Shown: positions 4,531-34,014, numbered from the stretch's first letter. The stretch is 64,000 nucleotides of DNA from Thermoplasmata archaeon (GCA_003554965.1 PWHR01000020.1:70202-134201); one strand, 5' to 3'. Translations and numbers: made by a program. Notes: generated by a model not told the origin, from the sequence alone.

Positions 4531-4534
4531 TAGA

Positions 4535-7219: not shown

Positions 7220-7225
7220 CTTATA

Positions 7226-8572: not shown

Positions 8573-8600
8573 ATCTACCCTCTGCTGATTACTTCTTTTA

Positions 8601-11937: not shown

Positions 11938-11950
11938 GAGATGAGATAAT

Positions 11951-12625: not shown

Positions 12626-12677
12626 AAGTCCATCAAGACAAAAATTTTATATCTTACGATGTGCATATTGTAAAACA

Positions 12678-13480: not shown

Positions 13481-13588
13481 CTTAAAAGCATATTTTTATC
13501 TCAGTTCACAAAAGATTAGAAAAGAAAAACCGGGTAGACAAAATTTATTATCCTACAGTCCTATATGGTCTGTAAAGGAGGTAAGAAT

Positions 13589-13723
13589 ATGCCGCTAGAC
13601 TCGCAGAGATGCCACTTCTGTGGCAATTGGACAAAAAATTATAGAAAAGTAGGGGACAAAAGCTTCTGTAAAGATTGTGTGAACGACCTTATGGAGTTGG
13701 TCCGGGATGAATTAGAAAGCTGA
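13589..13723 (+). CDS. Small zinc-ribbon protein (44 aa), not in ORF track
   Basis: Own translation gives MPLDSQRCHFCGNWTKNYRKVGDKSFCKDCVNDLMELVRDELES*. There are two CxxC pairs and a strong SD aggagg 9 nt upstream of the ATG. Confidence 0.45.
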   Translation: MPLDSQRCHFCGNWTKNYRKVGDKSFCKDCVNDLMELVRDELES

Positions 13724-13744
13724 GATATATCTTTCCCTCACAAA

Positions 13745-14602: not shown

Positions 14603-14694
14603 GGTCTCTCATCACTATCTATCAGTCCTATTAAATTGTTTTACCTCTTGAAAAAACAAAAGCTTAAAAAGCAGAAGTCTGTTCAGGGAAAAAC

Positions 14695-15843: not shown

Positions 15844-16572
15844 GCGGGGAAACATATCGTATTTTTCCTGAAGATAGAATATGACCGCTAATGTGCCGAA
15901 TATCACGGAAACGACTCCAAGAAAATATTGGATCCATCCTGGCAGGGTTCTTCGGACCGCAAAGGAACTGTCCGGGAGTAATCCACTGACGTTCAACTGT
16001 TCGATATCTATCCTACCCGTCTCGAACTCCTCATCGGGATCTTCGTCCATTCCAGCATCATCCAACTCCTGATCTGTGAAGTGACCTACCGATTTCATCA
16101 AGTGTTCTTCATCTTCATATTCGAAGTCCAATCTGAATTTTACCAGATAGGTGCCTTCTTCAGTTTCACTAGCGGTCTCTATGTTTAATTCTTCGGATTC
16201 TTTTTCTCCGCTAGAGATGCCCTCATATTGCAGGGTGATATTCACCGTGCCGCTCTCAGTAAAAACAGGCGGGTTTTCAACTTCTGAGATGTTCTTCTCT
16301 ACATCGGTGTACTCTAACCTATAGATGCTCAGGGTGAGATCTACATCTTCCATCGAATCCTCATAGGGGTTATAAAGGCTGAACTGGAAGTAGTCTGACT
16401 CACCAGGATCTATTTTCGGGGTGTCGATATCGTCTTCGTCGATTATCTGATTCACTTTTCCTGGATCCTCTATATAGCGCTCTTCTGCGTTCCCCTGAAA
16501 GGTGAAGGCGCTCATGGACATAAGGATGACCGCTGCGAGCAGGACCAAAACCCAGCTGAGTTGGCTTTTCAT
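15802..16572 (-). CDS. Secreted/membrane-anchored highly acidic protein (signal peptide + C-terminal TM helix)
   Basis: The internal start MKSQLSWVLVLLAAVILMSMSAFTFQG is a signal peptide. The body is Asp/Glu-rich. LPGW is followed by the hydrophobic helix IQYFLGVVSVIFGTLAVIFYL and a basic tail. The upstream part of the track ORF (16573..16692) is probably not coding. Confidence 0.5.
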   Translation of the reverse strand: MKSQLSWVLVLLAAVILMSMSAFTFQGNAEERYIEDPGKVNQIIDEDDIDTPKIDPGESDYFQFSLYNPYEDSMEDVDLTLSIYRLEYTDVEKNISEVENPPVFTESGTVNITLQYEGISSGEKESEELNIETASETEEGTYLVKFRLDFEYEDEEHLMKSVGHFTDQELDDAGMDEDPDEEFETGRIDIEQLNVSGLLPDSSFAVRRTLPGWIQYFLGVVSVIFGTLAVIFYLQEKYDMFPRLEKAFDKWSSKFK

Positions 16573-16635
16573 CAAAACGTGTTTACTCCCTATTGGTATA
16601 AAATACTTATGTGAGGAGCACCGATACAGGAACTG

Positions 16636-17637
16636 ATGGATAGAAAAGAAAGACCAGTGCTGCGGGTGCCCAAAAGGGAGGGACAAGAGCATCTAAAAAG
16701 ATTGAAAGAGGAAAACAGACTGGATCCTGAAAGGAAGATCAGTGAAGAAGGAGATGACCTTCTGATACCAGTGACAGAGGGGGGAAACGAAGAAAGATGT
16801 GACCTGGAAAAGAGAATTCCTTCAAATAAACCCCCTTTTCACCAAATAAAACAAAAGTTGGACTTGCCTGATGAGGAAAAGGAGAAACTACCGGACAGAT
16901 GGGAGATGATAGGTGAAGTACTCCTCATAAAGCTTCCCAAAGAACTACAATACAGAAAAGAAAGGATAGCCGAGGTATATGCTGAAAAGTTAGGTGCCAA
17001 AACAGTCATGCTTCAGGGGAGCATCGAGGGCAGAGTGAGGGAGCCAATTGTGGAGAAGATCTATGGTGAAGAAACAGAGACTGTTCACGTCGAGAACGAT
17101 GTGCTTTACAAGTTGGATACGGCGGAACTGATGTTCTCGAGCGGAAATATAGACGAGCGTATAAGGATAACTGAGAAAGTAAAAAGGAATGAGGTTATAG
17201 TGGACATGTTCGCAGGGATAGGTTATTTTTCTTTGCCGATGGCAGTCCACGGCGATCCAAAAAAGATCCATGCATTGGAGATCAACCCTAAAGCTTTCCG
17301 ATACTTACAGGAAAATATCGAGCTGAACGATGTTCAAGATACTGTGGAACCTGAACTCACGGACAACCGCGACTTTTCCTTCACCGGAGCGGACCGGGTG
17401 ATGATGGGATATCTAGACGAAACATGGAAGTATCTGGATAAAGCCGTCGGGTTCCTAGGTGAAGAAGGCACCATACATTATCACACGACCTGCAAAGATT
17501 CTGAGTATCCCGAGCAGGTAGAAAATGAACTGAAGGAGAATATCGAAGAGGACTTCAGTATCAGGGACCTGAGAGAGATCAAATCCTACGCCCCTCACGT
17601 TTTTCATGTCGTGGCTACGGTCAGAATCGAGAAATGA
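16636..17637 (+). CDS. tRNA (guanine37-N1)-methyltransferase Trm5 / Taw2 family (Met-10+ like)
   Basis: The class-I MTase motif VDMFAGIGYFSLPMA and the archaeal Trm5 architecture were seen. A TATA-like tataaaat lies ~26 nt upstream of the ATG, suggesting a leaderless transcript. Confidence 0.75.
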   Translation: MDRKERPVLRVPKREGQEHLKRLKEENRLDPERKISEEGDDLLIPVTEGGNEERCDLEKRIPSNKPPFHQIKQKLDLPDEEKEKLPDRWEMIGEVLLIKLPKELQYRKERIAEVYAEKLGAKTVMLQGSIEGRVREPIVEKIYGEETETVHVENDVLYKLDTAELMFSSGNIDERIRITEKVKRNEVIVDMFAGIGYFSLPMAVHGDPKKIHALEINPKAFRYLQENIELNDVQDTVEPELTDNRDFSFTGADRVMMGYLDETWKYLDKAVGFLGEEGTIHYHTTCKDSEYPEQVENELKENIEEDFSIRDLREIKSYAPHVFHVVATVRIEK

Positions 17638-20312: not shown

Positions 20313-21752
20313 TCAGTATCTCTTTTTACTATCTATCACTTCGCCCTCTTTAGAGACAAGATCCACTTTCAATGGCATCTGTCCCACTGCATGGGTGGAA
20401 CAGGAGAGGCATGGATCGTAGCACCTGACTACACTCTCAAGTCTGTTCAAAATGCCCTCTGGTATCTCCTCTTGGGAGCCGTCGATGTATTCTTCTGCTA
20501 CGCTCTGTATGCTCTTATTGATCCCCATATTGTTGTGCCCAGTAGCTACGATGAAGTTGGCATCTGTGATTATACCGTTTTCGTCCGACATGTATTCATG
20601 TATCAATGTTCCTCTAGGAGCTTCTATAACACCTCTACCTTTTGCTTTCCTAGCTTGAGTCGGTACATTTATCTCTCCAGTATAAACTTCTTCATCCTGG
20701 AGTAACTCTTCGATCTTCTCCACGGTGTGAAGTGTTTCTATCAGTCTCGCATAGTGGTAGAAAAGTGGACCCTCTTTTATCTCTTTACTCCCCATCTCTT
20801 TGTAACGCTTCCATTCTTCGTGAGCCAACTCAGTACTGATACCGTCGATCAGATTCAATCTCGCAAGTGGTCCCACTCTATAGACTCCTTCTTCGAATCC
20901 TTTATCCTTGTAGTACGGGAATTTCATATAGCTCCATTCTAAAGCCCTTTCTCCGATAACGTCATAGTACTTTTTAGGGTCTGTTTCTTCTAAAATTTCA
21001 CCATCAGAGTTCACCAAACGAAGATCACCGTCGTAAAATTCCAATTGTCCATCTTCATCGACCAGTCCCATGTAGGCAGTTTCATATGACGCAAACTCTT
21101 CCAATTGAGTGTCCATATCTTCGTATATTTCTTTCAAAAGCTCTATGGTTTCCTGCAGGTACGATTTCAAGTCATCTGTCTTCTCCAAGAACTCCTCGCC
21201 CTTTTCTCTGATCATGTTCTGATTAACGCCGCCTGCTACGGACAATTCAGGGTGAACTTTTTTGCCGCCTAAAGCTTCGATTATTCCTTGTCCAAAACTC
21301 CGAAGCTCTATACCTCTATCGACAAGCTCTTCATTTTCTCTGAGAAGTCCAAATATATTTCTCTCTTCCGGCGATTCATCAAACCCCATTACCAAGTCCG
21401 GACTTGAAAGGTAGAAAAAACTCAGACTATGTGATTGAAGTATCTGTCCCATGTGAAGGAGCTCCCTTATCTTATGTGCACTCTCAGGAACTTCTGCTCC
21501 TACCAGATCGTCGCATGCTTTTGAAGCGGCTAGTTCGTGACTTACTGGACATATCCCACATATCCTAGACGTCATCTCCGGCATCTCCCATAAAACCCTT
21601 CCCTGTACAAATTTTTCAAAAGCTCTGAATTCGGTCACGTGAAATCTAGCTTCTTCGACTTGTCTTTCATCGTCAAGATGTATGCTTATCTTACCATGGC
21701 CTTCTACCCTTGTTACGGGATTTATTTCTTTTATTTCTCCCATCTTATGCAC
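20313..21752 (-). CDS. hoxH: [NiFe]-hydrogenase large subunit (group 3d-like, HoxH)
   Basis: The N-terminal RICGICPVSH and C-terminal DPCLSCSTHAVG Ni-Fe ligand motifs were seen, at 479 aa. Confidence 0.9.
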   Translation of the reverse strand: MHKMGEIKEINPVTRVEGHGKISIHLDDERQVEEARFHVTEFRAFEKFVQGRVLWEMPEMTSRICGICPVSHELAASKACDDLVGAEVPESAHKIRELLHMGQILQSHSLSFFYLSSPDLVMGFDESPEERNIFGLLRENEELVDRGIELRSFGQGIIEALGGKKVHPELSVAGGVNQNMIREKGEEFLEKTDDLKSYLQETIELLKEIYEDMDTQLEEFASYETAYMGLVDEDGQLEFYDGDLRLVNSDGEILEETDPKKYYDVIGERALEWSYMKFPYYKDKGFEEGVYRVGPLARLNLIDGISTELAHEEWKRYKEMGSKEIKEGPLFYHYARLIETLHTVEKIEELLQDEEVYTGEINVPTQARKAKGRGVIEAPRGTLIHEYMSDENGIITDANFIVATGHNNMGINKSIQSVAEEYIDGSQEEIPEGILNRLESVVRCYDPCLSCSTHAVGQMPLKVDLVSKEGEVIDSKKRY

Positions 21753-21754
21753 CT

Positions 21755-22303
21755 CTAATATCTCAATTTATCTTTATCCAATTTCGGTATCTCTCCTTCA
21801 AGAAGCTTTTCCAGACCATAACGGATTATATCCGCGGATGGAGGACATCCAGGAATATATGCATCGACTTCTATCACTTCATCGAGTCCTCTAGCTTTCT
21901 CAGTTAGAGCAGGTACGTGCTCAGGATCAGGGATCTCACTTTCGTCATCACTTTTCCCTATGTAGCACTCTTCAAGTATATCCTCCACAGGTTCAAAATT
22001 TCTCATAGTCATGATCCCTCCAAAACAAGCACAGTCACCCCAGGCCACAAGTATCTCACAATTATCTCTCATCTCTTTGGCCACTTCGACGTTCTCCTCA
22101 TTAGTTATCGTTCCTTCTAATATTCCTATATCGACTTCTTCGATATCCTTGATATCCATTATCACGTGGCTAGACTGGAACTCGAGGAGTTCTGCAAGCT
22201 CCTTAACAAATTCGTCTACGTCCAAAAACGACATATGACAGCCCGAACATCCGCACATACAGGCCGTAGCTACCGTGGGTTTATCTTCTGCCATCTTTTT
22301 CAC
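21755..22303 (-). CDS. hoxY: [NiFe]-hydrogenase small subunit, proximal-cluster-only type (HoxY-like)
   Basis: 182 aa with ATACMCGCSGCH and a GDCACFGG proximal [4Fe-4S] pattern. There is no medial/distal cluster domain, as in HoxY. Confidence 0.85.
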   Translation of the reverse strand: MKKMAEDKPTVATACMCGCSGCHMSFLDVDEFVKELAELLEFQSSHVIMDIKDIEEVDIGILEGTITNEENVEVAKEMRDNCEILVAWGDCACFGGIMTMRNFEPVEDILEECYIGKSDDESEIPDPEHVPALTEKARGLDEVIEVDAYIPGCPPSADIIRYGLEKLLEGEIPKLDKDKLRY

Positions 22304-24156
22304 CTCTTTTCAGCTAATTCTTCAAAAAACTCTCTCTCCGACTTCAATTCTCCTTTAGGCTCCATAACCCGTTCGACTTCTTTTTCCTCTCCATTTATGT
22401 TGACTGAAGTGCCCTCTCTCTCAAACATAGTAAGAGATGGTATGACGAGATCAGCTTTTTCGGTTAATTCTGATCGTTTCGACGCCTGGACTATGGAAAA
22501 ATCAGCGTTCTCGATAAGTTTCTTCATATCCTCTTGATCATCTTCATCGCCTGCGAGGACATAAGCTACATCGGGCTCTTCGTAAACTCCTTCTGTTTCT
22601 AGACTCCTGATATACTGGTTGGAGGCCTGATTCAAGCTTATCAAGTAGCTACCTTCAAGCTTCGCTAATTCAAATATGTGTCTTATAGACCAACGATCGA
22701 TTATCTCACTACCCAAGATTATTATGTCATAGGTTGATTCTTCTAGATGTTTCACGACCTGCATCACATCTCTTGGATGCACCCTTAGACCACCTAGGAT
22801 CGAGGATACACGAGTAAGATCTTCTATAGATCCTTTACCCTCTCTGACGACTTGATTTATGAGCCTAGTTAACTGCGTCTTAGGAGATTCCACGCTTATA
22901 GAGATATCAGAATGTTCCCAGAACCTGTCTTCATAAGCATCTATGGTTATCAATCTGGTTCCGTTCATTGCTGCTCTTCTGATATACGAGGCTAGAACGG
23001 GATGTGTATCTCGTACAGAAGTATCGTAAAGAAGGATATGATCAGCTTTCATGACTTCTGTGATATCATCGATAAAGTGACCTTCGATCATATTTATCCT
23101 TCTTTTCACTTCTTTTTCGAATCTATGTCTTTTAGCTCCTACCACGTCAAATAAAGCTCCATGTGTTCTCATGGCTTCGGAAAACGAGTCGAGCACTTCA
23201 TTTGTGAGGTTTCCACTAGCCATAGCACTTATCTTGTCACCTTCATCGAGAACCTCTGCTGCCTTTTCGAGACCTTTTGCCAAACTCATCTCTTTCTCTG
23301 TCTCGTTCTCTTTATAGATCACATCATCGATTTTTTCAGTCCTGTCCACGAGAGGTTCAAATCTTCCCATCTCGCATAGCTGTCCTCCTGATTCCATTTC
23401 ACTTTCTGCCCCTTCGATCTCCACAAGATGTCCTGTACGGGTGTATATCTCAGTCTCGCATCCGACGCTGCATCTCAAGCAGGTAGATTCAGTGAGGTCA
23501 CATTCATCTTTGATGCCTTTGAACATACTGTGTTTGTTGAATATAGCTCCAGTGGGACATACTTGTAGGCACATACCACAAGAAACACAAGTAGATTCTT
23601 TCAAAGGTACATCGGCATCTGCAACTATCTCATTCTCGAGACCTCTACCACCAAATGCTAGAGTCTGATTTCCAACTACCTCTTCGCAGGCCCTAACACA
23701 CCTTCCACATCTGATACATCTGTTGTTGTCTATGACGATGTGCTCGTGGGAGGAATCTATAGGCCTATCTGGAAACAATCGAGGATGTTCAAAATAATCT
23801 ATCCCATTTTCCCACATCAGATCCTGTAATTCACAATCACCGTCAGATTCACAGAACATACAATAATGGTTTTCACTGCGGTATATAAGTTCAAGATTCA
23901 TCCTTCTGTATTTTTTGATCTCGTCCGTTTCAGTCTTTATCTCTAAATCTTCTTCCACTTTGAGTCCACAAGCTGGTTGTATTTGCTCTCCGTTCACTTC
24001 TACTATGCAAACCCGACAGGCCATAACGTTCTCCATTGCGTCGTGCTGGCAAAGTTTAGGTATATCTATACCGTGCTTTTTGCAAGCGGACATCACTGTT
24101 TCTCCCTTTTCAGCGGAGATCTTTTCTCCGTCTACAGTAAATTTTACGGTGCTCAT
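22300..24156 (-). CDS. hoxU: NuoG/HoxU-like FeS subunit (2Fe-2S + His-ligated 4Fe-4S + 2x4Fe-4S + degenerate molybdopterin-like domain)
   Basis: CRVCIVEV (2Fe-2S), HYCMFCESDGDC (His-4Fe4S), CIRCGRCVRAC, CVSCGMCLQVCP and CLRCSVGC were seen. 618 aa, a long form compared with ~240-aa cyanobacterial HoxU. Confidence 0.8.
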   Translation of the reverse strand: MSTVKFTVDGEKISAEKGETVMSACKKHGIDIPKLCQHDAMENVMACRVCIVEVNGEQIQPACGLKVEEDLEIKTETDEIKKYRRMNLELIYRSENHYCMFCESDGDCELQDLMWENGIDYFEHPRLFPDRPIDSSHEHIVIDNNRCIRCGRCVRACEEVVGNQTLAFGGRGLENEIVADADVPLKESTCVSCGMCLQVCPTGAIFNKHSMFKGIKDECDLTESTCLRCSVGCETEIYTRTGHLVEIEGAESEMESGGQLCEMGRFEPLVDRTEKIDDVIYKENETEKEMSLAKGLEKAAEVLDEGDKISAMASGNLTNEVLDSFSEAMRTHGALFDVVGAKRHRFEKEVKRRINMIEGHFIDDITEVMKADHILLYDTSVRDTHPVLASYIRRAAMNGTRLITIDAYEDRFWEHSDISISVESPKTQLTRLINQVVREGKGSIEDLTRVSSILGGLRVHPRDVMQVVKHLEESTYDIIILGSEIIDRWSIRHIFELAKLEGSYLISLNQASNQYIRSLETEGVYEEPDVAYVLAGDEDDQEDMKKLIENADFSIVQASKRSELTEKADLVIPSLTMFEREGTSVNINGEEKEVERVMEPKGELKSEREFFEELAEKR

Positions 24157-25952
24157 TCATTATCACCTTCCGATATAGCTTCGACAGGACAAACCTGAGC
24201 ACATTCACCACATGAGATACAGGTATCAGGATCGATGCTGTACGATTCATCTCCACTTGATATAGCGTCTACCGGACAGACTTCAGTACATTTTCCGCAC
24301 GTCACGCAAGCTTCCTCATCGATGTAGAAAGCCTCAACTAGTGCTTTACATGTGCCTGTTGGGCACTCTTTTTCGTTGACATGGGCCTCATATTCTTCCC
24401 TGAAAAATCTCAAAGTACTCAAAACTGGGTTTGGGCTTGCCTGGCCGAGTCCGCAGAAAGATGTATTCTGTACAGTTTCAGCTAGTTCTTCCAATGTCTC
24501 AAGATCCTCGGATTCTCCTTCACCTTTTGTTATCTTATCTAATATGTCCAACATCCTTTTGGTACCTAATCTACAGGGGGGACACTTACCACAGGATTCT
24601 TCCTGAGTGAAGTCTAAAAAGAACTTGGCGACATCGACCATGCATGTGTCTTCATCTAAAACTATGAATCCTCCCGAGCCCATTATAGTTCCAGCTTCCT
24701 CTAGTGAATCATAATCTATAGGTAGATCGATATGTTCTTCAGGTATAGTCCCACCAGCTGGTCCGCCTATCTGTACCGCCTTGAAATCCTTTCCACCGGC
24801 AACACCGCCAGCTATATCTATCATCTCTTCAATAGTGGTACCCATCTCAGCTTCAACAAGACCAGTGTTCCCAACATCTCCGGCTACTGCAAAAACCTTT
24901 GTTCCGGAACTTCCTTCAGTCCCGATATCATCGAACCACTCTGATCCTTTCTCTATAATAATAGGTATGTTCGCAAACGTTTCTACGTTGTTTATAACTG
25001 TAGGTTGATCCCAAAGACCAGATTGCGCGGGATATGGAGGCCTGTATTTTGGTCTTCCCTGTTTTCCCTCTATAGATGAAAGTAAAGCGGTCTCCTCACC
25101 ACAGACGAAAGCTCCTGCACCGACTCTCAACTCTACATTGAAATCAAATTGGGTGTTGAAAAGGTTCTCTCCTAGATAACCCTCGCTTTCGGCATCCCTA
25201 ATGGCTTTTTGTAGATTTCTGATAGCTAATGGATATTCAGCTCTAACATAGATATATCCCTTATTGGCTCCAACTGCGTAACCTGCGATCATCATCCCTT
25301 CGATGATACTATGTGGATCGCCTTCTAAAACACTCCTATCCATAAATGCTCCTGGATCTCCCTCATCTCCGTTACAAACAACATATTTTTCATCTTCGTC
25401 TTCACGGGCGGTAAATTCCCACTTGAGCCCAGTTGGGAATCCAGCACCACCTCTTCCCCGTAGGCCAGATTCTTTTATCTCTTCTATTATCTCCTCTCTT
25501 TCCATATCTGTTATAGCTTTCCTAGCTGCCATGTATCCATCATTTTCAAGATAGTCTTCAAGGCTGCTCGGATCTATATCTCCTGAATTCCTCATGACTA
25601 TCTTTTTTTGACCCTGTATGAAATCAAGTTTTTGAAACTCTTCGACTTTGTGACCATCATCCTCTATGAGTAAATTACGAACTACACGATCTTTCAACAA
25701 GTGTTCTTCAACAATTGTTTCAACATCGGATGGCTCTAGATTTCCATAAAAGGTGTCCTCAGGTCGAATGATTATCATAGGACCGAGATTGCAGGGTCCC
25801 ATACAGCCTGTCCTCTTTATCGCTCTAGTCACTGGATATTTATCCTCCAGTTCGTGTTTCCAGAGTTCGTCCATCAATTTATCTTCAATCTCCTCAGCCC
25901 CGGCTGATAAGCAACCTGTACCGGAACATATCAGGATTTCTCTTCTAGTCAT
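24153..25952 (-). CDS. hoxF: NuoF-like NAD(P)H-binding FMN/FeS subunit (HoxF / 51 kDa-like) with N-terminal Trx-like 2Fe-2S and C-terminal 2x[4Fe-4S]
   Basis: GAGFPTGLKWEF (FMN/NADH), ESCGKCPPCRLGT (N3 cluster), the N-terminal SGTGC...GCMGPC and the C-terminal CVTCGKCTEVCP/CISCGECAQVCP were seen. Confidence 0.9.
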   Translation of the reverse strand: MTRREILICSGTGCLSAGAEEIEDKLMDELWKHELEDKYPVTRAIKRTGCMGPCNLGPMIIIRPEDTFYGNLEPSDVETIVEEHLLKDRVVRNLLIEDDGHKVEEFQKLDFIQGQKKIVMRNSGDIDPSSLEDYLENDGYMAARKAITDMEREEIIEEIKESGLRGRGGAGFPTGLKWEFTAREDEDEKYVVCNGDEGDPGAFMDRSVLEGDPHSIIEGMMIAGYAVGANKGYIYVRAEYPLAIRNLQKAIRDAESEGYLGENLFNTQFDFNVELRVGAGAFVCGEETALLSSIEGKQGRPKYRPPYPAQSGLWDQPTVINNVETFANIPIIIEKGSEWFDDIGTEGSSGTKVFAVAGDVGNTGLVEAEMGTTIEEMIDIAGGVAGGKDFKAVQIGGPAGGTIPEEHIDLPIDYDSLEEAGTIMGSGGFIVLDEDTCMVDVAKFFLDFTQEESCGKCPPCRLGTKRMLDILDKITKGEGESEDLETLEELAETVQNTSFCGLGQASPNPVLSTLRFFREEYEAHVNEKECPTGTCKALVEAFYIDEEACVTCGKCTEVCPVDAISSGDESYSIDPDTCISCGECAQVCPVEAISEGDNE

Positions 25953-25979
25953 TTTATCTATCCTCTTTCTAAACTCTTT

Positions 25980-26438
25980 TTAATATCTATTTAAAATATC
26001 TTCTAGCTCTTCAGTCTGGACTTTACCATAAACATCATCACCGACCATCACTATCGGTGCTTTACTGCAGGCTCCAACACACCTTTTTGTGTTAAATGTG
26101 AATTTTCCGTCATCGGACGTGCCACCTTCTTCTACATTTAATCTGTCTTTCAGTTCTTCAGTTAGTTCGTCAGCTCCTTTCACATGACAAGCAGTTCCCG
26201 TACATACAGATATGGTGTAATCTCCCTTCGGTTCCATAGTAAAAAACGAGTAGAAAGTAACCACTGAATAAACTTGGCTGTATGGGATACCGAGTTCCTC
26301 GGCTATGAACTCCTGAACCTCTTTTGGAAGATAACCCAGTTTTTTCTGAACTTCGTGCAGTATGGGTATCAAACTTCCAGCTTTCTTTTCATATTCCTCT
26401 ATTATGGGCAACATATCCCGCAGATGGTATTTTTCCAT
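25980..26438 (-). CDS. hoxE: NuoE-like thioredoxin-fold [2Fe-2S] subunit (HoxE / 24 kDa-like)
   Basis: CTGTACHVKG...CVGACSKAP matches the NuoE Cys pattern, at 152 aa. Confidence 0.85.
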   Translation of the reverse strand: MEKYHLRDMLPIIEEYEKKAGSLIPILHEVQKKLGYLPKEVQEFIAEELGIPYSQVYSVVTFYSFFTMEPKGDYTISVCTGTACHVKGADELTEELKDRLNVEEGGTSDDGKFTFNTKRCVGACSKAPIVMVGDDVYGKVQTEELEDILNRY

Positions 26439-26831: not shown

Positions 26832-28331
26832 ATGGATAAAAAACCGAAGGTGGCTTTTTTCGATTTCGCAGGATGTGAAGGAGACCAACTGCAAATAGCC
26901 AATTTAGAGGAAAAAATACTGGACCTGTTAGAACTGGTGGAGATAGTGAGTTTTAGGGAGGTCATGAAGGAGCATTCAGATGACTATGAAGTGGCTTTCA
27001 TCGAAGGTTCTATTCAGAGACCTAAAGACGAGGAGAGATTGAAAAAGATAAGATCGAACGCGGATATGTTGATAGCTCTTGGAGACTGTGCAAGCAACGG
27101 CTGTGTGAACAAACTCCAAAAAGATTGGTCTATAGATGAAGTTGAAGAAGAGGTCTATCCTGAAGCAGACGATGAGATAGAAGACAACGAACTCTTCTCT
27201 AATTTTTCAACAAAAGCCGTTGACGAAGTGGTTAATGTGGATTATTATCTGAGAGGTTGTCCTGTAAGAGGAGATCGTGTTCTCAACTTCGTTGAAAAAT
27301 TGGTGAAAAGACCAGTCGATACTAATAAAGATATAGATTTTGGAGTTATGCTGAGAGATAAAGAAGTTGATGAGCGGTCACTCGTCAACTACAATCCAAA
27401 TAAATGTATACTATGTCGACGGTGTGCTAATGTTTGTCAGGACGTCCTTGGAGTAGACGCATTAGGGCCGGTCGAAAGAGGTTGGGAGACGATCATATCA
27501 ACTCCTAAAGATATAGGATTTGACGCCAATGGATGTATTCAATGTGGACAATGTGTCGCGGTGTGTCCTGTAGATTCACTATATACAGATACGCCGGTAG
27601 AAGAGTTGTCTGAAAAGTTGAAAGAAGGAACCCAAGAGTTCGCCATAGCTCTGGACTCCATTGCGGTCGCCTCTTTTATCCAGGAGCATCCCATGCTGTC
27701 TGATATGGAACCAAAACAGGCAGAAAGATACTTTATCGCAAGTCTGAAAAAGATGGGATTCGGAAAAGTCGTTCAATACGAGCACTTTCTAGAGATGTCT
27801 AGAGAAGCAGATGAGGATAACGATGAGCCTGTATTAGCTAGTTGGTGTTTGCCTGCTAGAAATCATTTAGAAGCAGAGGAAATCGATTCTCTAAGTGTAA
27901 AAGACAAAAACGGACCTTGGAATAAGCTTTTAAAAGAAGTAAAAGGAGAGATCTGTTTGATGAGTCCATGCAGTGGTTTAAAAGCAGTTGAAGGGCTAGA
28001 TCATGTGATATCTGCTCCTGAGATGATAGATCTGTTCAACCACTTAGACATTCAAATTGGATTTGTTGAGCCAGCTTCGGGAGATTACGACGGAAAGCTT
28101 GCTTCTGATGATTTCAAGCATCCAGGAATTCCTGATGATAGAGAATATTTTAAGGTCACAGCTGATCTTGAAGATGAATTAGCTGAAGCGGACCTTGAAG
28201 ATGGGGGCGTAGACGTATTTCCCTGTCTGAATGGTTGTTTGAGTGGTGGAGGTAACCATCCAACAGCAGATGAATCCAAGATCAAGAAGAGGATAGAAAT
28301 AGCGATCGAATTGAGAGAGGTGAGATCATGA
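26832..28331 (+). CDS. Hybrid hydrogenase subunit: [NiFe] small-subunit (FrhG/MvhG-like) domain + 2x[4Fe-4S] ferredoxin domain + shortened [FeFe]-hydrogenase H-cluster-like domain
   Basis: The N-terminus FDFAGCEGDQ...GDCASNGC is a NuoB/small-subunit proximal-cluster pattern. CILCRRCANVC and CIQCGQCVAVCP are two 4Fe-4S motifs. The C-terminal 250 aa align by eye to the Clostridium-type HydA H-domain: IALDSIAVAS~VAMAPSVRAS, SLKKMGFGKV~ALRQLGFDKI, ASWCLPA~TSCCPGW (L1), MSPCSGLKAVE~MPCTSKKFEA (L2) and FPCLNGCLSGGGNHP~MACHGGCVNGGGQP (L3). SD aggagg is present. Confidence 0.75.
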   Translation: MDKKPKVAFFDFAGCEGDQLQIANLEEKILDLLELVEIVSFREVMKEHSDDYEVAFIEGSIQRPKDEERLKKIRSNADMLIALGDCASNGCVNKLQKDWSIDEVEEEVYPEADDEIEDNELFSNFSTKAVDEVVNVDYYLRGCPVRGDRVLNFVEKLVKRPVDTNKDIDFGVMLRDKEVDERSLVNYNPNKCILCRRCANVCQDVLGVDALGPVERGWETIISTPKDIGFDANGCIQCGQCVAVCPVDSLYTDTPVEELSEKLKEGTQEFAIALDSIAVASFIQEHPMLSDMEPKQAERYFIASLKKMGFGKVVQYEHFLEMSREADEDNDEPVLASWCLPARNHLEAEEIDSLSVKDKNGPWNKLLKEVKGEICLMSPCSGLKAVEGLDHVISAPEMIDLFNHLDIQIGFVEPASGDYDGKLASDDFKHPGIPDDREYFKVTADLEDELAEADLEDGGVDVFPCLNGCLSGGGNHPTADESKIKKRIEIAIELREVRS

Positions 28332-28819
28332 CTGAAACTCAAGACGAAAAAGAGGAGCTCTCTTGGAAAGAAAAAAAAGAACTTGAAAAGATCATAGATT
28401 CAGTCGAGGACCCCAAATACCAGAAAATCGAGCTGCTTCAAAAAACTCAGGAAAAATACAAGTGGCTGAAAGATGAGCATATGGGATATCTTGCCGAGTC
28501 TACTGGTGTCAGTTACACTGACCTTTACGGCATAGCTACTTTCTATACCCAATTTAAACTTCATCCGCCTGGACGTCATAAGATATCTGTTTGTATGGGT
28601 ACAGGATGTCACGTCAAAGGTGGTAGGGAAATACTTGAAAAATTAAAGGATATATTGGAGATAGACGTCAACGAAACAACAGAGGATAGAAGATTCTCAC
28701 TTGATCAGGTCAGGTGTTTGGGCTGTTGTGGTCTAGCCCCTGTTATTAACGTAGATGGTGAGACCTTTGGAAGAGTGAGTACAAAAGAAATAGAAGGTAT
28801 ATTAAAGGAGTTCAAGTAG
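28328..28819 (+). CDS. NuoE-like thioredoxin-fold [2Fe-2S] subunit
   Basis: CMGTGCHVKG...CLGCCGLAPV. It overlaps the upstream gene by 4 nt. Confidence 0.85.
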   Translation: MTETQDEKEELSWKEKKELEKIIDSVEDPKYQKIELLQKTQEKYKWLKDEHMGYLAESTGVSYTDLYGIATFYTQFKLHPPGRHKISVCMGTGCHVKGGREILEKLKDILEIDVNETTEDRRFSLDQVRCLGCCGLAPVINVDGETFGRVSTKEIEGILKEFK

Positions 28820-31800
28820 GTGAGAATGATGACTATAAAAACCTTAGAAGATTTAGATGAGATGGCGAATATAGGAATAGAAGATCTTGATCCAGATCAC
28901 CCACAGATAATCTTTGGATTCGCCACATGCGGTATAGCCGCTGGTGCTGAAGACGTGGTCGAGTTCACTAAAGAATATTTGGATGAAAAGGACATAAGAG
29001 CGGAACTCGGCGCAGTGGAAGAACCAGAGATCAAATCAGTAGGCTGTATCGGGATGTGTCATGCTGAACCATTGGTAGATGTAAAGATGCCCGACAAACC
29101 AAGGATAACATACTATGATGTAGATGAGACTAAGCTGAAGAGGATCATTGATGAACATGTTATAGGTGGTCGACCGGTCAAAGAATATGCTTTAGGTCAA
29201 TTGAGTGACGAACTATCGGAATGTGAGCACGGAAAGACGAAATTTACCTGGGAATTTGAGGAAATACCCTCCCTCAATGAGATACCTTTCCTATCAAAGC
29301 AGGTCAGAGTGGCTTTGAGAAACTGCGGTATCATCGATCCGGAATCGATAATGGAGTACACGGCTAGAGGGGGTTACAGGTCAGCCTTCAATGCATTGAA
29401 TAACATGAGTCCTCAAGAAGTGATAGAGGAAGTGAAAGAATCAGGACTGCGTGGTAGAGGAGGGGCCGGTTTTCCAACTGGTTTGAAATGGCAGTTCGCA
29501 AGAGACGCCGAAGGCGATCAAAAATATGTGATCTGCAACGCAGACGAAGGTGATCCTGGTGCTTATATGGATAGAGCAGTTTTAGAAGGAGATCCACACA
29601 GCCTCATAGAAGGCATGATCATAGGAGGTTATGCGATAGATGCCTCAGTCGGTTACATATACATCAGAGCCGAGTATCCTCTAGCCATTGAAAGGTTGAA
29701 AAAGGCCATAAAAGAGGCAGAGGAATACGGAATACTGGGCGAAGATATCTTAGGCAGTGATTTTTCCTTCGAACTAAAGATAATGGAAGGAGCAGGTGCT
29801 TTCGTATGTGGAGAAGAGACGGCATTGATGGGGTCTATAGAAGGTAACCGAGGTGAACCTAGACCTAGACCGCCTTTCCCGGCTAACTCCGGATTATTCG
29901 AAAAGCCGACCAACATCAATAATGTGGAAACCTGGGCGAACCTTCCGTTGATATTCGAAAAGGGCGCTGAGTGGTTCAACAGCATGGGGACCGAGAAAAG
30001 TAAAGGTACCAAAGTTTTCTCGCTTGTCGGCAATATCAAACGAGCTGGGCTGGTAGAGATCCCGATGGGTACGAAGATGAAAGATATAATATATGAGATA
30101 GGAGGAGGGATGCAGAACGAAAGAGATTTCAAAGCCGTCCAGACAGGTGGTCCTTCCGGTGGATGTATACCTCTTGAACATTTAGACGTGGAGGTAGATT
30201 ATGAGAACTTAGATGAACTTGGGTCAATCGTAGGTTCCGGTGGAATGGTGGCGATGGACGAAGATACGTGCATGGTCGATATCGCTCGATACTTCTTAGA
30301 ATTCTGCGTTGACGAGTCCTGCGGAAAGTGTACCCCCTGTAGAGTCGGTACTAGAAGGATGCTTGAAATCTTGGAAAGAATCGTTTTGGGCGAAGCAAAG
30401 ATGAAAGATTTAGAAACCCTAGAACATCTAGCTAAACAAGTCAGGGATGGATCACTTTGTGCCCTAGGAGGTACATCACCCAATCCCGTGCTTACCACAT
30501 TGAAGTACTTTAGAGATGAATACGAGCAGCATATAGAGCATAACAAATGTCCTGCTTCCTCATGTGCAGCTTTATTCCTTTCACCGTGTGAAGATACTTG
30601 TCCTGCCGGAACCGATGTGCCAGGTCAGATGCAACTTATCATCGAGGAGCGTTTCGGGGAAGCTTACGAATTTCAGAGGGAAGACAATCCATTCCCCGGT
30701 GTTTGTGGAAGAGTATGCGACCATCCTTGTGAGGACAGATGTCAGAGGAACCAATTGGATAGAGCAGTTTCTGTGATGTCTCAGCACAGGTTCTGCGCAG
30801 ATAAAGTGTATGAAGGAGAGATCGATTACAGACCTGAAACCTCAACTCTTGAAGATACAGGTAAACATGTTGGTATAGTCGGCGGAGGAGTCACAGGATT
30901 GACGACCGCTTACTTCTTAAAAAGATTGGGTCACGATGTTACGATATACGAAGCGAAGGACGAACTTGGAGGTATGCTGAGATGGGGCATACCAAAATAC
31001 AGGCTGCCTAGAGACGTGTTGGACTGGGAGATACAACAGATTTTGGATCTCAATGTGGATGTAGAGATGAACACATCAGTGGGCAAGGATATCCCGTTTG
31101 ATGATGTGCTTGATGATCATGACGCGGTGTTCCTTGGAGTAGGAGCTCAGAAAGATCGCGCATTGAATATGGAAAACGAAGATAAGCCAGGCATATTGAA
31201 AGGAATGGATATCCTTGAAAAGATGAACAGAGGTGAAGAAGTAGAGTTGGGAGACCGCATCCTGATAGTCGGTGGGGGTAACGTAGCCGTCGATATGGCT
31301 AGGACCGCTAAGAGGATGGGCTGCGAAGAGATAATAATAGCATACAGGAGAGAAGAGGTAGATATGCCGGCTTATCCCGAAGAAGTAGAAGAGGCAAAAA
31401 AAGAAGGTATAGAGTTCAATTTCCTTCTTTCTCCTGAAGAGATAATAGTTGAAGATGGAAAAGCTACCGGCATGGTTTTCACGAAAACTAAGATGGGTGA
31501 ATACACCAAATGGGGTCGTAGGAAACCAGTGCCTGTGGATTACGAGAAAGTCATCTTCAAAGCAGATAATATAATTACGGCGATAGGTCAGGAAATAGAC
31601 ATGAGTTTCGCTGAGGACTTGGCTGATAAGATCACAGATGAAAGGGGAAGAAGACTTAAAGTAAATCCCTATACGATGGAAACAGATCATCCTGATGTAT
31701 TTGCAGGAGGAGACGCCGTTTTAGGACCAGCCACCGTTATAGAGGCCGTAGGCCATGGTAAAAAAGCCGCTAAGGAAATAGACGCCCGATTGATGGGGGA

Positions 31801-32014
31801 AGACAGGTTGGAAGAACTTCAGAGCATAAATACTTATGAATATTCCATGGAACCACCAGATAACGAGCACTACATACCTAGAGCAGAATATCAATCCATC
31901 CCCGTAGAAGAAAGGAGTGGTAACTTCGAGGAAGTCATAGTATGTATGGACAGGGAGTGCGCGGTAAAAGAAGCAAAGCGTTGTCTTAGATGTGATATAT
32001 CAGAGGAGGAATGA
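28820..32014 (+). CDS. Fusion protein: NuoF-like NAD(H)/FMN/FeS module + GltD/NfnB-like FAD-dependent NADPH oxidoreductase module
   Basis: GAGFPTGLKWQF and ESCGKCTPCRVGT (NuoF core), an N-terminal Trx-like ATCG...GCIGMCH, then CEDTCPAGTD...CGRVCDHPCEDRC (GltD-type FeS), VGIVGGGVTGLTTAY (FAD) and IVGGGNVAVDMA (NADPH) folds were seen. 1064 aa. Confidence 0.85.
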   Translation: MRMMTIKTLEDLDEMANIGIEDLDPDHPQIIFGFATCGIAAGAEDVVEFTKEYLDEKDIRAELGAVEEPEIKSVGCIGMCHAEPLVDVKMPDKPRITYYDVDETKLKRIIDEHVIGGRPVKEYALGQLSDELSECEHGKTKFTWEFEEIPSLNEIPFLSKQVRVALRNCGIIDPESIMEYTARGGYRSAFNALNNMSPQEVIEEVKESGLRGRGGAGFPTGLKWQFARDAEGDQKYVICNADEGDPGAYMDRAVLEGDPHSLIEGMIIGGYAIDASVGYIYIRAEYPLAIERLKKAIKEAEEYGILGEDILGSDFSFELKIMEGAGAFVCGEETALMGSIEGNRGEPRPRPPFPANSGLFEKPTNINNVETWANLPLIFEKGAEWFNSMGTEKSKGTKVFSLVGNIKRAGLVEIPMGTKMKDIIYEIGGGMQNERDFKAVQTGGPSGGCIPLEHLDVEVDYENLDELGSIVGSGGMVAMDEDTCMVDIARYFLEFCVDESCGKCTPCRVGTRRMLEILERIVLGEAKMKDLETLEHLAKQVRDGSLCALGGTSPNPVLTTLKYFRDEYEQHIEHNKCPASSCAALFLSPCEDTCPAGTDVPGQMQLIIEERFGEAYEFQREDNPFPGVCGRVCDHPCEDRCQRNQLDRAVSVMSQHRFCADKVYEGEIDYRPETSTLEDTGKHVGIVGGGVTGLTTAYFLKRLGHDVTIYEAKDELGGMLRWGIPKYRLPRDVLDWEIQQILDLNVDVEMNTSVGKDIPFDDVLDDHDAVFLGVGAQKDRALNMENEDKPGILKGMDILEKMNRGEEVELGDRILIVGGGNVAVDMARTAKRMGCEEIIIAYRREEVDMPAYPEEVEEAKKEGIEFNFLLSPEEIIVEDGKATGMVFTKTKMGEYTKWGRRKPVPVDYEKVIFKADNIITAIGQEIDMSFAEDLADKITDERGRRLKVNPYTMETDHPDVFAGGDAVLGPATVIEAVGHGKKAAKEIDARLMGEDRLEELQSINTYEYSMEPPDNEHYIPRAEYQSIPVEERSGNFEEVIVCMDRECAVKEAKRCLRCDISEEE

Positions 32015-32020: not shown

Positions 32021-32707
32021 ATGAATATAATAATCGACGGAAAAGAATACGGATTTGAGCCTGGGCAAAAAGTTTACGATGTGGCCGAGGAGAACGGTAT
32101 TGATATACCCACTCTATGCTTCAATGAGTTGAATCCAGACGAAAGACCCGCAGGATGCAGGATGTGTGTGGTAGAAATAATCGATGATGGAAACAACGAA
32201 CCAAATCTAGAGTCCAGTTGTACTTTACCTGCCTCTGATGGTTTAGAGATTTCAACGAAGAATAAAGTAGTATACGATGAAAGAAGAGAAGTTCTTGAGC
32301 TGTTACTATCTGAGCATGAACAGGATTGTCGTAATTGTGGGATAAGCGGCGACTGTCATTTTGCCGATCTTTCCTTAGAATACGATATAGACGGTGTTTC
32401 AGTATGTTCAGAATGTCCCAATCGTAAAGATGGATGTTTTCTGTCCCGAGATGTATTATGTTTAGGGGCGATAACTCATGCAGGTTGTGATGCTTTCTGT
32501 ACTCGCAACGGAGACCCTTGTGAGGGTTGTTTCAGTGTTCTTAGCAACGAAGACGTACTAGTATTTGGACTCGAAGCCTATGATGAGAATGGCTTCAGCA
32601 GAAAAGAAGTGTTGGAATCTGCTAAAGTCTTCTCTTATGAGGATGTTGAGGTACTCAAAAGACTGATGGAAGAAAATGACTTATTGAAAGAGGAGGTGTC
32701 TGAATGA
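32021..32707 (+). CDS. HoxU-like ferredoxin subunit (2Fe-2S + 4Fe-4S clusters)
   Basis: The 2Fe-2S-ferredoxin N-terminus (TLCF...GCRMCVVEI), HEQDCRNCGISGDC and CSECP...CDAFC...CEGC Cys clusters were seen. 228 aa. Confidence 0.7.
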   Translation: MNIIIDGKEYGFEPGQKVYDVAEENGIDIPTLCFNELNPDERPAGCRMCVVEIIDDGNNEPNLESSCTLPASDGLEISTKNKVVYDERREVLELLLSEHEQDCRNCGISGDCHFADLSLEYDIDGVSVCSECPNRKDGCFLSRDVLCLGAITHAGCDAFCTRNGDPCEGCFSVLSNEDVLVFGLEAYDENGFSRKEVLESAKVFSYEDVEVLKRLMEENDLLKEEVSE

Positions 32708-34014
32708 AAGATGTAGACGTCGAAGTAGAACACGTGACCAGAGTAGAAGGTCACGGTAATATAATAGTTGATGCGAAAAAAGGTGAACTAGAGGAAGTCC
32801 TTTGGGAGGTTTCAGAAGCACCAAGGTATTTTGAAGCATTCGTTAAAGAAAAACCATACGATCAATTGGCTCAGATAACATCTAGGATTTGCGGTATCTG
32901 TTCCATCGGCCATGCGTTGACCTCTCTCAAGGCTACTGAAGACGCTATGGGTATAGAGATCTCAAAGCAAGACAAGATGTTGAGAAAGTTAGCTCTTCAT
33001 GGAGAAAACATGCAGAGTCATGTTTTACACATAGGTTATCTAGCTCTTCCCGACTTAGTGGGAAAGGATTCGATAGTTCCTATGACCTCATCTCATCCCG
33101 AGGAACTTAAAACAGTCATCGGCATACACAGTCTTGCTAACGAGATGTCGCGGATCATGTGCGGAAGGACAACTCATCCAAGGCGGTTGATACCTGGTGG
33201 TTTTTCAAAACTGCCTTCTCCTCTGGAACTGGAAGATCTGATGCATAAGCTTGAGAGTTCAGTCACTGATCTGAAAGAGATAGCTTCCTTTGTAAAAGGA
33301 CTCTCTTCAGAACTTCCTGATTTCGAAAGAGAAACAGAGTTCATCTCGCTGACCCATGACGATGAATATCCTTTCTATGAAGGCAAAATAATATCTTCAG
33401 ATGGTGGGAAAACACCCGTTGAAGATTACCTCTCCGTAACAAATGAGTACGTAGTACCACAATCCACTGCCAAGTATACTAAAAATAATCGGGAATCCTA
33501 TATGGTAGGTGCCTTAGCAAGGCTGAACAATAACTATGACAAATTGAGTCCACTCGCAAAAGAGGTTGCAGAAGACTTTGGCCTTTCTCCCGTCTGCCAC
33601 AATCCTTACATGAACACTATAGCCCAGCTAGTCGAAGTCGTTCATAACGTAGAAGATTCAATTCGCATTATTAATGAATTACTCGATAGAGGCATAGATG
33701 AACAGGGATCAACTCACAAACCCGAAATAGAACCGAAGACTGGAAGAGGTATAGGTGCTGTAGAGGTACCAAGAGGCATACTGTTCCACGATTACACTTA
33801 CGATGAAGATGGCAGGTGTACTGATGCGAACTGTATAATACCTACAAATCAGAACCATGGTAATATACAGCACGATATGGAAGACTTGGTCCCGGAGATA
33901 ATAGGAGAAAGAACAGAGGATGAAATAGAATTGACGTTGGAAATGCTAGTACGTGCTTACGACCCGTGTATCTCCTGTTCAACGCACTACGTAGATGTTG
34001 ATTTCGTAGAATAG
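32704..34014 (+). CDS. [NiFe]-hydrogenase large subunit (short group-3-type)
   Basis: RICGICSIGH at the N-terminus and DPCISCSTHYVD at the C-terminus were seen. 436 aa. Confidence 0.9.
   Translation: MKDVDVEVEHVTRVEGHGNIIVDAKKGELEEVLWEVSEAPRYFEAFVKEKPYDQLAQITSRICGICSIGHALTSLKATEDAMGIEISKQDKMLRKLALHGENMQSHVLHIGYLALPDLVGKDSIVPMTSSHPEELKTVIGIHSLANEMSRIMCGRTTHPRRLIPGGFSKLPSPLELEDLMHKLESSVTDLKEIASFVKGLSSELPDFERETEFISLTHDDEYPFYEGKIISSDGGKTPVEDYLSVTNEYVVPQSTAKYTKNNRESYMVGALARLNNNYDKLSPLAKEVAEDFGLSPVCHNPYMNTIAQLVEVVHNVEDSIRIINELLDRGIDEQGSTHKPEIEPKTGRGIGAVEVPRGILFHDYTYDEDGRCTDANCIIPTNQNHGNIQHDMEDLVPEIIGERTEDEIELTLEMLVRAYDPCISCSTHYVDVDFVE

Follow-up and report, generated by a model that had tools for sequence, protein, structure and literature searches.

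The stretch of DNA considered here, 64,000 nucleotides (nt) from a Thermoplasmata archaeon (GCA_003554965.1, PWHR01000020.1:70202-134201; the whole of it is hereafter called the window), encodes five adjacent proteins on one strand between positions 26832 and 34014, namely HyhS-HydA, HydC, HydB::GltD, HydD and HyhL, with overlapping or abutting gene ends. The third gene (28820..32014, plus strand), in which a NuoF-like HydB core is followed in the same polypeptide by a module of the glutamate-synthase small-subunit type (GltD), is the subject of this analysis. Counted from a GTG start codon that abuts the stop codon of the upstream gene, its open reading frame comprises 1064 codons without interruption; public gene calls place the start at the ATG two codons further in (position 28826), which results in a protein of 1062 residues. 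The deduced protein is very acidic (isoelectric point 4.6) and was recovered from the metagenome of a soda-lake sediment (JGI 3300000557, record SL_8KL_010_SED), presumably from the Kulunda region, as read from the record name only.

Conservation of the fusion was assessed in 117 full-length fusions, which were found among the best 120 database clusters and share the same architecture and junction, as well as in an alignment of 48 homologs showing 48–86% identity. Since all 117 full-length orthologs carry the same junction, the gene does not result from a frameshift. Chimeric or frameshifted joining of nuoF and gltD was ruled out by the agreement of several assemblies and by these orthologs, and an assembly or sequencing error that fused two separate genes is practically negligible as an explanation, given that the identical 1062-residue protein is recorded in the NCBI, JGI and Logan assemblies and that at least 80 genome loci were recovered with a junction profile. 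The continuous frame postulated in the original prediction for this locus was thus corroborated.

Architecture of the fused HydB subunit

Within the N-terminal half, Pfam matches to Complex1_51K (residues 205–376, 6.5e-47), SLBB (400–447) and NADH_4Fe-4S (487–571, 1.7e-35) were obtained. The NuoF/BfuB core (residues 160–575; 29297..30544, plus strand), recognised by Pfam and Foldseek, scored 690–694 bits against 9n5u_B and 7t2r_B. It carries the motifs GLRGRGGAGFPTGLKW (209–224), NADEGDPGAYMDR (240–252) and GAGAFVCGEETAL (324–336) of the site for flavin mononucleotide (FMN) and nicotinamide adenine dinucleotide (NAD(H)). Furthermore, the ligands of the N3/B1 [4Fe-4S] cluster (C501, C504, C507 and C547) and the glutamates E332/E333 of the 'CGEE' motif at the FMN site are invariant in the 48 homologs. 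A role of the latter motif in NADH specificity is presumed from work on E183 of Escherichia coli NuoF.

Residues 30–586 match subunit B of the Bfu family nearly end to end. The best scores were obtained for T. sibiricus NfnB (9n5u_B, 1.8e-207) and the [NiFe]-hydrogenase subunit HydB of Acetomicrobium mobile (A. mobile; 7e-207), with similar values for S. ovata StnB and C. saccharolyticus NfnB, whereas the non-bifurcating FdsB, Nqo1 and NuoF lay about 250 bits below. Structural comparison of the AlphaFold model by means of Foldseek led to the same ranking, with target TM-scores (TMt) of 0.87–0.97 and root-mean-square deviations (rmsd) of 1.7–2.5 Å for chain B of 9bp5, 9bov, 8oh5 and 9n5u. The B2 site, a hallmark of bifurcating BfuB proteins that consists of a conserved His and three Cys at the hinge following a four-helix bundle (PMC12018979), is represented by H571, C577 and C582 (30527..30565, plus strand) together with C484 (nt 30269–30271). 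These residues align to H524/C529/C534/C437 of T. sibiricus NfnB and are invariant in all 48 homologs. A. mobile possesses a fifth B2 ligand (C476), making its B2 a [2Fe-2S] cluster; because this Cys is replaced by V522 in the fusion, its B2 site probably holds zinc.

Upstream of the core, a thioredoxin-like domain comprising the B5 site (residues ~28–125; 28901..29194, plus strand) was aligned to residues 7–95 of 9n5u_B and 4–90 of 8oh5_B. Pfam returned no thioredoxin-like match for the N-terminus at E<0.01; a beta-alpha-beta fold is seen in the AlphaFold model, which reached a mean predicted local distance difference test score (pLDDT) of 88 and a predicted TM-score (pTM) of 0.84 for the whole protein. 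The domain contains three Cys in total, C76 and C80 being invariant (48/48) and C37 being present in 45 of the 48 homologs. In solved relatives, the B5 site binds [2Fe-2S] in some cases and zinc in others (PMC12018979). Hence, of the thioredoxin-like 2Fe-2S domain originally predicted, the fold was supported by the PDB alignments and the model, whereas the '2Fe-2S' label is not established. Between this domain and the NuoF core, an insert of ~30 residues, QLSDELSECEHGKTKFTWEFEEIPSLNEI (127–155; 29198–29284, plus strand), was observed, which is absent from subunit B of A. mobile and S. ovata and features the lowest model confidence (pLDDT ~53). Comprising a NuoF-like FMN/NAD(H) domain, SLBB, the B1 cluster, the B2 site and the N-terminal B5 domain, the N-terminal half is a Bfu-type bifurcating subunit B and not a plain NuoF or HoxF.

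For the C-terminal half, Fer4_20 (residues 575–665, 1.7e-16) and Pyr_redox_2/Pyr_redox (683–980, 7e-31) were identified by Pfam. All four families by which the architecture was expected to be recognisable (Complex1_51K, NADH_4Fe-4S, Fer4_20, Pyr_redox_2) were therefore matched, and the domains of the predicted arrangement, a NuoF core followed by a GltD-type module with two [4Fe-4S] clusters and sites for flavin adenine dinucleotide (FAD) and for NADPH, the phosphorylated counterpart of NADH, scored well above threshold. The iron-sulfur (Fe-S) domain of this module (residues 587–665; 30578..30814, plus strand), matched by Fer4_20, aligns from residue 104 of NfnA and from residue 102 of both StnC and 9bov_A, and provides the ligands C590, C594, C629, C633, C637 and C641, as well as H656 as the equivalent of Lys170 in StnC/NfnA. 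Subsequently, the Rossmann domains for FAD and NADP(H) (residues 678–995; 30851..31804, plus strand) match Pyr_redox_2 and scored 339–379 bits against the NADPH-dependent NfnA/StnC modules. They contain the FAD-type GxGxxG motif GGGVTG (688–693), E711, R728 (R239 in StnC), the NADPH-type motif GGGNVAVD (818–825) and YRR (842–844). The C-terminal return segment (31817..32014, plus strand), ending in EAKRCLRCD (C1055, C1058), aligns to residues ~590–596 of NfnA and to the N-terminus (15–47) of NfnL (5jca_L).

Conservation of these elements is high. In the 48 homologs, the residues of the GxGxxG, GGGNVAVD and YRR motifs are invariant except for N821 (43/48) and G693 (47/48), and the eight cluster Cys, E711 and R728 are invariant or nearly so; complete FAD and NADPH motifs were detected by regular expression in 103 of the 117 full-length fusions. 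The YRR stretch, invariant in 48/48, is identical to the pattern of StnC and T. sibiricus NfnA. Since both relatives are experimentally NADPH-dependent, NADP(H) specificity of the module can be strongly inferred. Residues 587–1060 matched best to NfnA (4.7e-112), 9bov_A (3.6e-111) and StnC (3.9e-100), and more weakly to the free-standing proteins NfnL (4e-75) and GltD (8e-55). Moreover, the RCxxC pair, which precedes 'PC-x3-CP' in NfnL and GltD, is located at the extreme C-terminus in the fusion, NfnA and StnC, and an RC[LMI]xC motif occurs within the last 25 residues of 109 of the 117 sequences. Because the CxxC pair that is N-terminal in ordinary GltD/NfnL is here supplied by the C-terminus, the module is circularly permuted, as in the Nfn-Bfu/Stn transhydrogenases. 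An NADH-type site (CGEE at FMN) and an NADPH-type site (YRR at FAD) reside in one chain next to hydrogenase genes. The hint at an Nfn-like function given in the original prediction was apt, as the closest solved structures of both halves are Bfu-type transhydrogenases (NfnB/NfnA of 9n5u and 9bov, StnB/StnC of 8oh5).

The two halves are connected by the linker AALFLSP (30566..30586, plus strand), which separates the last B2 Cys from the first GltD Cys by seven residues, and exactly this length was found in 117/117 full-length homologs. The B2 hinge of canonical BfuB leads into a ferredoxin-like domain whose two CX2CX2CX3CP motifs represent clusters B3 and B4; electrons of low potential reach this domain from C1, the mobile cluster of BfuC, and are handed on to ferredoxin (PMC12018979, PMC11829005). 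No CX2CX2CX3CP motif was detected in the fusion, and B3/B4 are kept in none of the 117 full-length homologs. When the fusion was compared by BLAST with the canonical paralog encoded in the same window, 'PC-x3-CP' of the GltD domain aligned to the last two Cys of the first B3/B4 motif. Since the B3/B4 motifs are absent, the GltD Cys align to their place and the spacer is invariant, the GltD Fe-S domain seems to be a positional replacement of the ferredoxin-exit domain B3/B4 at a fixed distance from the hinge. In a neighbour-joining tree of BfuB cores, the canonical sequences (only three) were as near to the fusions as the fusions to one another.

The hybrid hydrogenase operon and related systems

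Judged by its sequence features, the fusion is the HydB subunit of the archaeal hybrid group F [FeFe]/group 3f [NiFe] hydrogenase, for which every testable defining feature was found: a HyhS-[FeFe] HydA fusion, five contiguous genes, a glutamate-synthase-type domain on HydB and an archaeal host. The latter is indicated by a ribosomal protein L3 of archaeal length (332 residues) and an L4-L23-L2-S19 operon directly downstream; named relatives of the fusion are Thermoplasmata/Thermoplasmatota metagenome-assembled genomes (MAGs). The enzyme was described by Greening et al. (Cell, 2024) from 21 archaeal genomes, including those of Thermoplasmata (PMC11216029). As in the published enzymes, five contiguous genes and a Thermoplasmata-type host are present, whereas the window represents a new soda-lake lineage and its proximal-cluster motif is CxxD instead of CxxC. 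In the published work, HydB was modelled with chain I of 7MFM, a GltD, and an AlphaFold prediction for the homologous complex put the glutamate-synthase domain on the low-potential arm; the word NADPH is absent from the main text, and the physiological role was called unclear (PMC11216029). In the searchable literature, from which subscription-only papers are excluded, that study is the only one mentioning a NuoF/HydB-GltD fusion, and no earlier functional description was found. The idea of an NADPH-dependent, Nfn-like function is reasonable and is unpublished within the same body of literature.

Among the subunits, HyhS-HydA (499 residues; 26832..28331, plus strand) matches Oxidored_q6 (15–156) and Fer4 in Pfam and consists of a [NiFe] small-subunit proximal-cluster domain (residues 1–160), a 2x[4Fe-4S] ferredoxin-like domain (185–255) and a reduced [FeFe] H-domain (256–499). 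PDB matches were obtained to HydA (8a6t_A, 5.9e-23; residues 166–322 and 455–489), MvhG (5odc_E, 2e-18) and 7t2r_E. The protein features four H-cluster-type Cys motifs, and SWC, SPCxxxK and PCLNGCLSGGG are kept in relatives. The H-domain is short (~245 residues; 27597–28331, plus strand). At the position of 'SCC' in clostridial HydA it carries 'SWC', as do the five relatives aligned, so that the proton-relay Cys may be replaced by Trp; the clostridial reference, however, aligned poorly in this region. Among ten of the larger open reading frames scanned in window positions 1–16700, none was seen to encode HydE/F/G or Hyp proteins. Regarding the first Cys motif of the small subunit (26832–26900), 'AGCEGD' occurs in the window and in locus L006, and 'SCEGC' in loci L005, L007 and L008. 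The replacement of the second Cys of the motif by Asp suggests an Asp-ligated or otherwise altered proximal cluster in the lineage of the window.

HydC/BfuC (28328..28819, plus strand; Pfam 2Fe-2S_thioredx 20–163, 6.6e-47) is a NuoE-like thioredoxin-like [2Fe-2S] protein carrying the C1 gating cluster; in almost all of the 80 loci classified, its gene immediately precedes that of the fusion. The conduit subunit HydD (228 residues; 32021..32707, plus strand) is composed of an N-terminal NuoG-like part with a [2Fe-2S] and a His-ligated [4Fe-4S] cluster (Pfam Fer2_4, NADH-G_4Fe-4S_3) and a C-terminal part resembling the medial/distal-cluster half of the group 3b small subunit, residues 121–210 matching positions 160–250 of NCBIfam sulfhyd_HydD (1.9e-10). 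The [NiFe] small subunit is thus apparently split, its proximal-cluster domain (26832–27310) being located on the [FeFe]-like protein and its medial/distal-like half on HydD (32021–32707). HyhL (436 residues; 32704..34014, plus strand; Pfam NiFeSe_Hases) is a group 3 [NiFe] large subunit with the active-site motifs RICGICSIGH and DPCISCSTH, and its nearest solved chain is the alpha subunit of sulfhydrogenase I (9nez_D, 4e-62, vs 6e-35 for 5xf9_D).

The gene order of the operon is conserved in L005, L006, L007 and L008. Relatives with these five genes in this order show 58–75% identity, and a HycI protease gene is often next. Among the matches listed, L007 and L008 ('Balneolales' MAGs CSSed162cmA_303 and CSSed162cmB_239, binned as bacteria) represent the closest species-representative genomes with a hybrid operon. 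Their identity to the window is 73% at the junction and their GC content is 0.55–0.58 vs 0.43; either interdomain transfer or misbinning would account for the hybrid operon in these genomes. In L008, the hybrid operon is located between HypF and HycI together with a Hox-type (HoxEF-U-Y-H) hydrogenase.

Comparison with characterised systems revealed the closest relationship to the Nfn-Bfu/Stn enzymes (NfnABC of T. sibiricus and C. saccharolyticus, StnABC of S. ovata; 9n5u, 9bov, 8oh5), which combine a BfuBC core with a permuted GltD-type FAD/NADPH module and match both halves best in sequence as well as in structure. In those enzymes, however, subunit A/StnC contains the module as an insertion and ferredoxin is still served by B3/B4, whereas here it is located on subunit B in place of B3/B4 and the hydrogenase catalytic subunits (HyhL, H-domain) are present. 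The fusion is homologous to these systems and presumably works in a similar way, but owing to these differences it is not a member of that family. NiFe-HydABCSL of A. mobile (7t2r) is likewise a Bfu-type [NiFe] hydrogenase (690 bits for the HydB core), in which, however, HydB terminates in B3/B4, HydA is a single long subunit, HydS is not fused and the B2 site contains a fifth Cys. The large subunit of NfnSL/NfnAB, SudA and GltD (5jca_L, 4ylf_B, 2vdc_G) share the fold, two [4Fe-4S] clusters and the FAD and NADPH motifs with the C-terminal half; they are more distant (4e-75 to 8e-55), unpermuted, free-standing and paired with NfnS or GltB. HoxF of group 3d [NiFe] hydrogenases (5xf9) is also a NuoF-like diaphorase of a soluble [NiFe] hydrogenase, but HoxF-type homologs are devoid of the B2–B5 sites (PMC11829005), whereas B2 and B5 are present in the fusion. 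A group 3d Hox enzyme was ruled out by these sites and by HyhL being nearer to 3b than to 3d. Since the operon does not contain a gene for NfnS (PyrK-like, with [2Fe-2S] and FAD), NfnSL was rejected as well, and a glutamate-synthase beta subunit was excluded by the operon content (GltB absent) and the defining features named above.

A canonical NiFe-HydABCSL operon (20313..26438, minus strand; Pfam) is located back to back with the hybrid operon and is divergently transcribed. It encodes HydC, HydB with B3/B4, a NuoG-like HydA of 617 residues, HydS (182 residues) and HydL (478 residues). Its subunits are orthologs of those of A. mobile, with 774 bits for HydB over its full length (7t2r_B) and 565 bits for HydL (7t2r_D), and the C-terminus of its HydB shows the B2 site followed by two CX2CX2CX3CP motifs. 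The adjacency of this ferredoxin-type operon implies functional differentiation of the two enzymes. Only six BfuB sequences were contained in the clade holding most NiFe-Bfu enzymes in a survey of the Bfu family (PMC9304861). Elsewhere in the window, this archaeal contig encodes a full-length formate-tetrahydrofolate ligase (10258–11937, plus strand; Pfam FTHFS, 839 bits), adjoined by AICARFT/IMPCHase (8601–10139).

Distribution and catalytic partners of the fusion

Contrary to the original assumption that such fusions are uncommon, they turned out to be widespread. A junction-centred profile search of species-representative genomes recovered at least 80 loci, of which 77 of 80 span the whole junction and three end at a contig edge, and the intact junction was found in at least 75 species genomes belonging to many phyla. 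Among the bacterial hosts are Bacillota, Chloroflexota, Desulfobacterota, Bacteroidota, Spirochaetota, Acidobacteriota, Planctomycetota, Verrucomicrobiota, Omnitrophota, Armatimonadota, Actinomycetota, Proteobacteria and others; archaeal hosts include Asgard archaea.

The search for partners of homologous fusions, as envisaged in the prediction, uncovered loci for [FeFe] hydrogenase, formate dehydrogenase, MetFV and [NiFe] hydrogenase. Neighbouring genes at 80 loci were classified by tblastn with catalytic-domain probes, resulting in overlapping categories. A gene for an [FeFe] H-domain was located near the fusion at no fewer than 34 loci (for example in L003, with an [FeFe] HydA), and a molybdopterin formate dehydrogenase at 12 or more, five of which also encode MetF/MetV. 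MetF/MetV without formate dehydrogenase occurred at one locus at least (six or more MetFV loci in all). [NiFe] subunits were detected at a minimum of seven loci, the hybrid arrangement being confined to L007 and L008 among the matches listed. Nine loci lack any probed partner, and 19 are too short or cut. The fusion adjoins genes for [FeFe] hydrogenase, formate dehydrogenase, MetFV, [NiFe] hydrogenase and a GltB-like protein; it is thus a modular core shared by different catalytic partners.

Several of these loci show particular arrangements. In L004, FdhA and MetV/MetF are encoded together with the fusion within a Wood-Ljungdahl cluster, and in Wood-Ljungdahl loci of the Dehalococcoidia type (L004 15822–23084; L023, L027, L036, L038, L059, L060), the fusion gene is followed by MetV (PF12225) and MetF, which suggests a methylene-tetrahydrofolate (methylene-THF) reductase complex with NAD(H) and NADP(H) sites. 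Locus L047 (8044–16714; Promethearchaeota Loki_b31) encodes BfuC, BfuB::GltD, a Fer2_4 protein and a 526-residue GltB-like protein with the FMN-domain signature of glutamate synthase, and three glutamate dehydrogenase paralogs flank this cluster, which may represent a Bfu-type glutamate synthase. In the [FeFe] clusters of L070, L073, L074 and L078, BfuC-BfuB::GltD is directly followed by a second pair of NuoE-like and NuoF-like genes. This second NuoF-like protein does not possess a C-terminal domain, extending only 3–12 residues past the core, so that two flavoprotein pairs are encoded per cluster.

Proposed electron routes and competing explanations

Based on the architecture described above, a scheme is proposed as the best explanation, in which NADP(H) would serve in place of ferredoxin as substrate of the low-potential branch, energetically coupled to the NAD(H) reaction; its chances of being right are regarded as even. 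It is favoured by the match of both halves to characterised Bfu enzymes for NADPH, NAD and ferredoxin, by the published placement of the glutamate-synthase domain on the low-potential arm (PMC11216029) and by the neighbouring ferredoxin-type operon. The five subunits HyhS-HydA, HydC, HydB::GltD, HydD and HyhL would form a soluble complex, in which the N-terminal half of the fusion and HydC would constitute the bifurcating core with FMN and its NAD(H) site, B1, the mobile C1 cluster and the His/Cys3 hinge. Electrons from H2 would be conveyed to B1 and FMN by the Fe-S clusters of HyhS, HydA and HydD. From FMN, NAD+ would be reduced by hydride transfer, and the gated C1 branch would lead via the two GltD clusters and FAD to NADP+. 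In the reverse direction, NADH and NADPH would together yield two H2, and in the uptake direction the reduction of NAD+ could pull the reduction of NADP+ at low H2.

After Buckel and Thauer, physiological potentials are said to be about -280 mV for NADH and -380 mV for NADPH. By our own arithmetic from these potentials, NADH plus NADPH could evolve H2 up to ~150 Pa, as compared with ~3 Pa for NADH alone, and the exchange of ferredoxin for NADP(H) is thermodynamically sensible. The value of about -280 mV for NADH was also quoted elsewhere (PMC9304861).

Several observations weigh against this scheme. Deletion of B3/B4 in HydABC of T. kivui abolished bifurcation (PMC11829005), and a core without B3/B4 may for this reason not bifurcate. 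In Stn/NfnABC, the same GltD module functions as a mid-potential input and not as a low-potential exit (PMC10482914, PMC12018979). The predicted NADP(H) specificity is read from motif identity with relatives only. Furthermore, in Foldseek the Nfn/Stn chains align with the fusion model over 556–558 columns, lengths that are ambiguous with respect to a superposition of the GltD Fe-S domain on B3/B4; longer alignments (613–617 columns for 9mqx_B, 8a6t_B and 7p92_B) have an rmsd of ~5 Å and involve targets with longer N-termini. Finally, the glutamate-synthase domain on HydB had already been noted in the description of the hybrid hydrogenase and was taken as likely ferredoxin-binding (PMC11216029).

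The mid-potential role known from Stn leads to an explanation in which the GltD module would be a second mid-potential port, NADPH feeding the FMN core like H2, and ferredoxin would stay the low-potential acceptor, docking on the GltD Fe-S domain or elsewhere; one complex would then combine an Nfn-type transhydrogenase and a bifurcating hydrogenase. It is considered rather unlikely, even though the closest matches of the module, those in NfnA/StnC, work in this manner (PMC10482914, PMC12018979) and share its permuted C-terminal RCxxC. A canonical NfnSL pair, unrelated to the fusion, adjoins the orthologous operon in L005, which is also counted in favour of this wiring. However, the module of Stn/Nfn-Bfu is located in subunit A with B3/B4 retained, whereas here it occupies the place of B3/B4 on subunit B; B3/B4 are missing throughout the homologs, and no other ferredoxin-type exit domain is evident on HydB.

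The T. kivui result (PMC11829005) is also in line with an uncoupled, dual-cofactor diaphorase, i.e., a non-bifurcating NAD(P)-linked hydrogenase in which the FMN and FAD sites would be independent sinks or sources, and the closeness of HyhL to NADP-linked group 3b enzymes fits this view. Nevertheless, it is judged improbable, as the B5 domain and the B2 site (His/Cys3) have been retained and conserved, along with a HydC of full length that still has its mobile domain, and these features are absent from the non-bifurcating HoxF/FdsB/Nqo1 homologs (PMC11829005). Still less credible is a module used for ferredoxin docking only, in which the glutamate-synthase-like domain would relay electrons to ferredoxin with its nucleotide pocket unused: this was called likely by Greening et al. 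(PMC11216029), and the two [4Fe-4S] clusters of NfnL are a route to ferredoxin, but the FAD and NADPH motifs are maintained throughout the alignment of 48 homologs, even at 48% identity, and such conservation would not be shown by an unused pocket.

The scheme with NADP(H) on the low-potential branch can tentatively be extended beyond the hydrogenase. It is possible, though held with reserve, that BfuB::GltD proteins represent a large, so far overlooked group within the Bfu family that would use NADP(H) as its low-potential partner instead of ferredoxin, electrons from H2, formate or NADH being split between NAD+ and NADP+, and NADH plus NADPH driving H2 formation or methylene-THF reduction in reverse. 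The Bfu survey of Schut et al. (2022) never mentions proteins of this type, defined BfuB by the ferredoxin-type domain IPR017896 among others, and excluded metagenomic sequences (PMC9304861). Owing to both the domain requirement and this exclusion, the fusions were probably missed. The fusion carries the GltD-type Fer4_20 domain instead of the C-terminal ferredoxin-type 2x[4Fe-4S] domain (IPR017896), but an adjacent BfuC (HydC, 28328–28819) and A-type clusters on HydD and the hybrid subunit are present.

If NADP(H) does not substitute for ferredoxin, the fusion is another member of a published complex. For the hybrid hydrogenase, the arm assumed to serve ferredoxin (PMC11216029) carries all conserved NADP(H)- and FAD-site residues, which provides a concrete proposal for the partner and role of this enzyme. 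If the proposal is true, both pyridine-nucleotide pools would be coupled to H2, formate and C1 metabolism in a ferredoxin-independent, energy-conserving manner, in archaea as well as in more than a dozen bacterial phyla, and H2 thresholds, syntrophy and the supply of NADPH in anaerobes would call for revised models.

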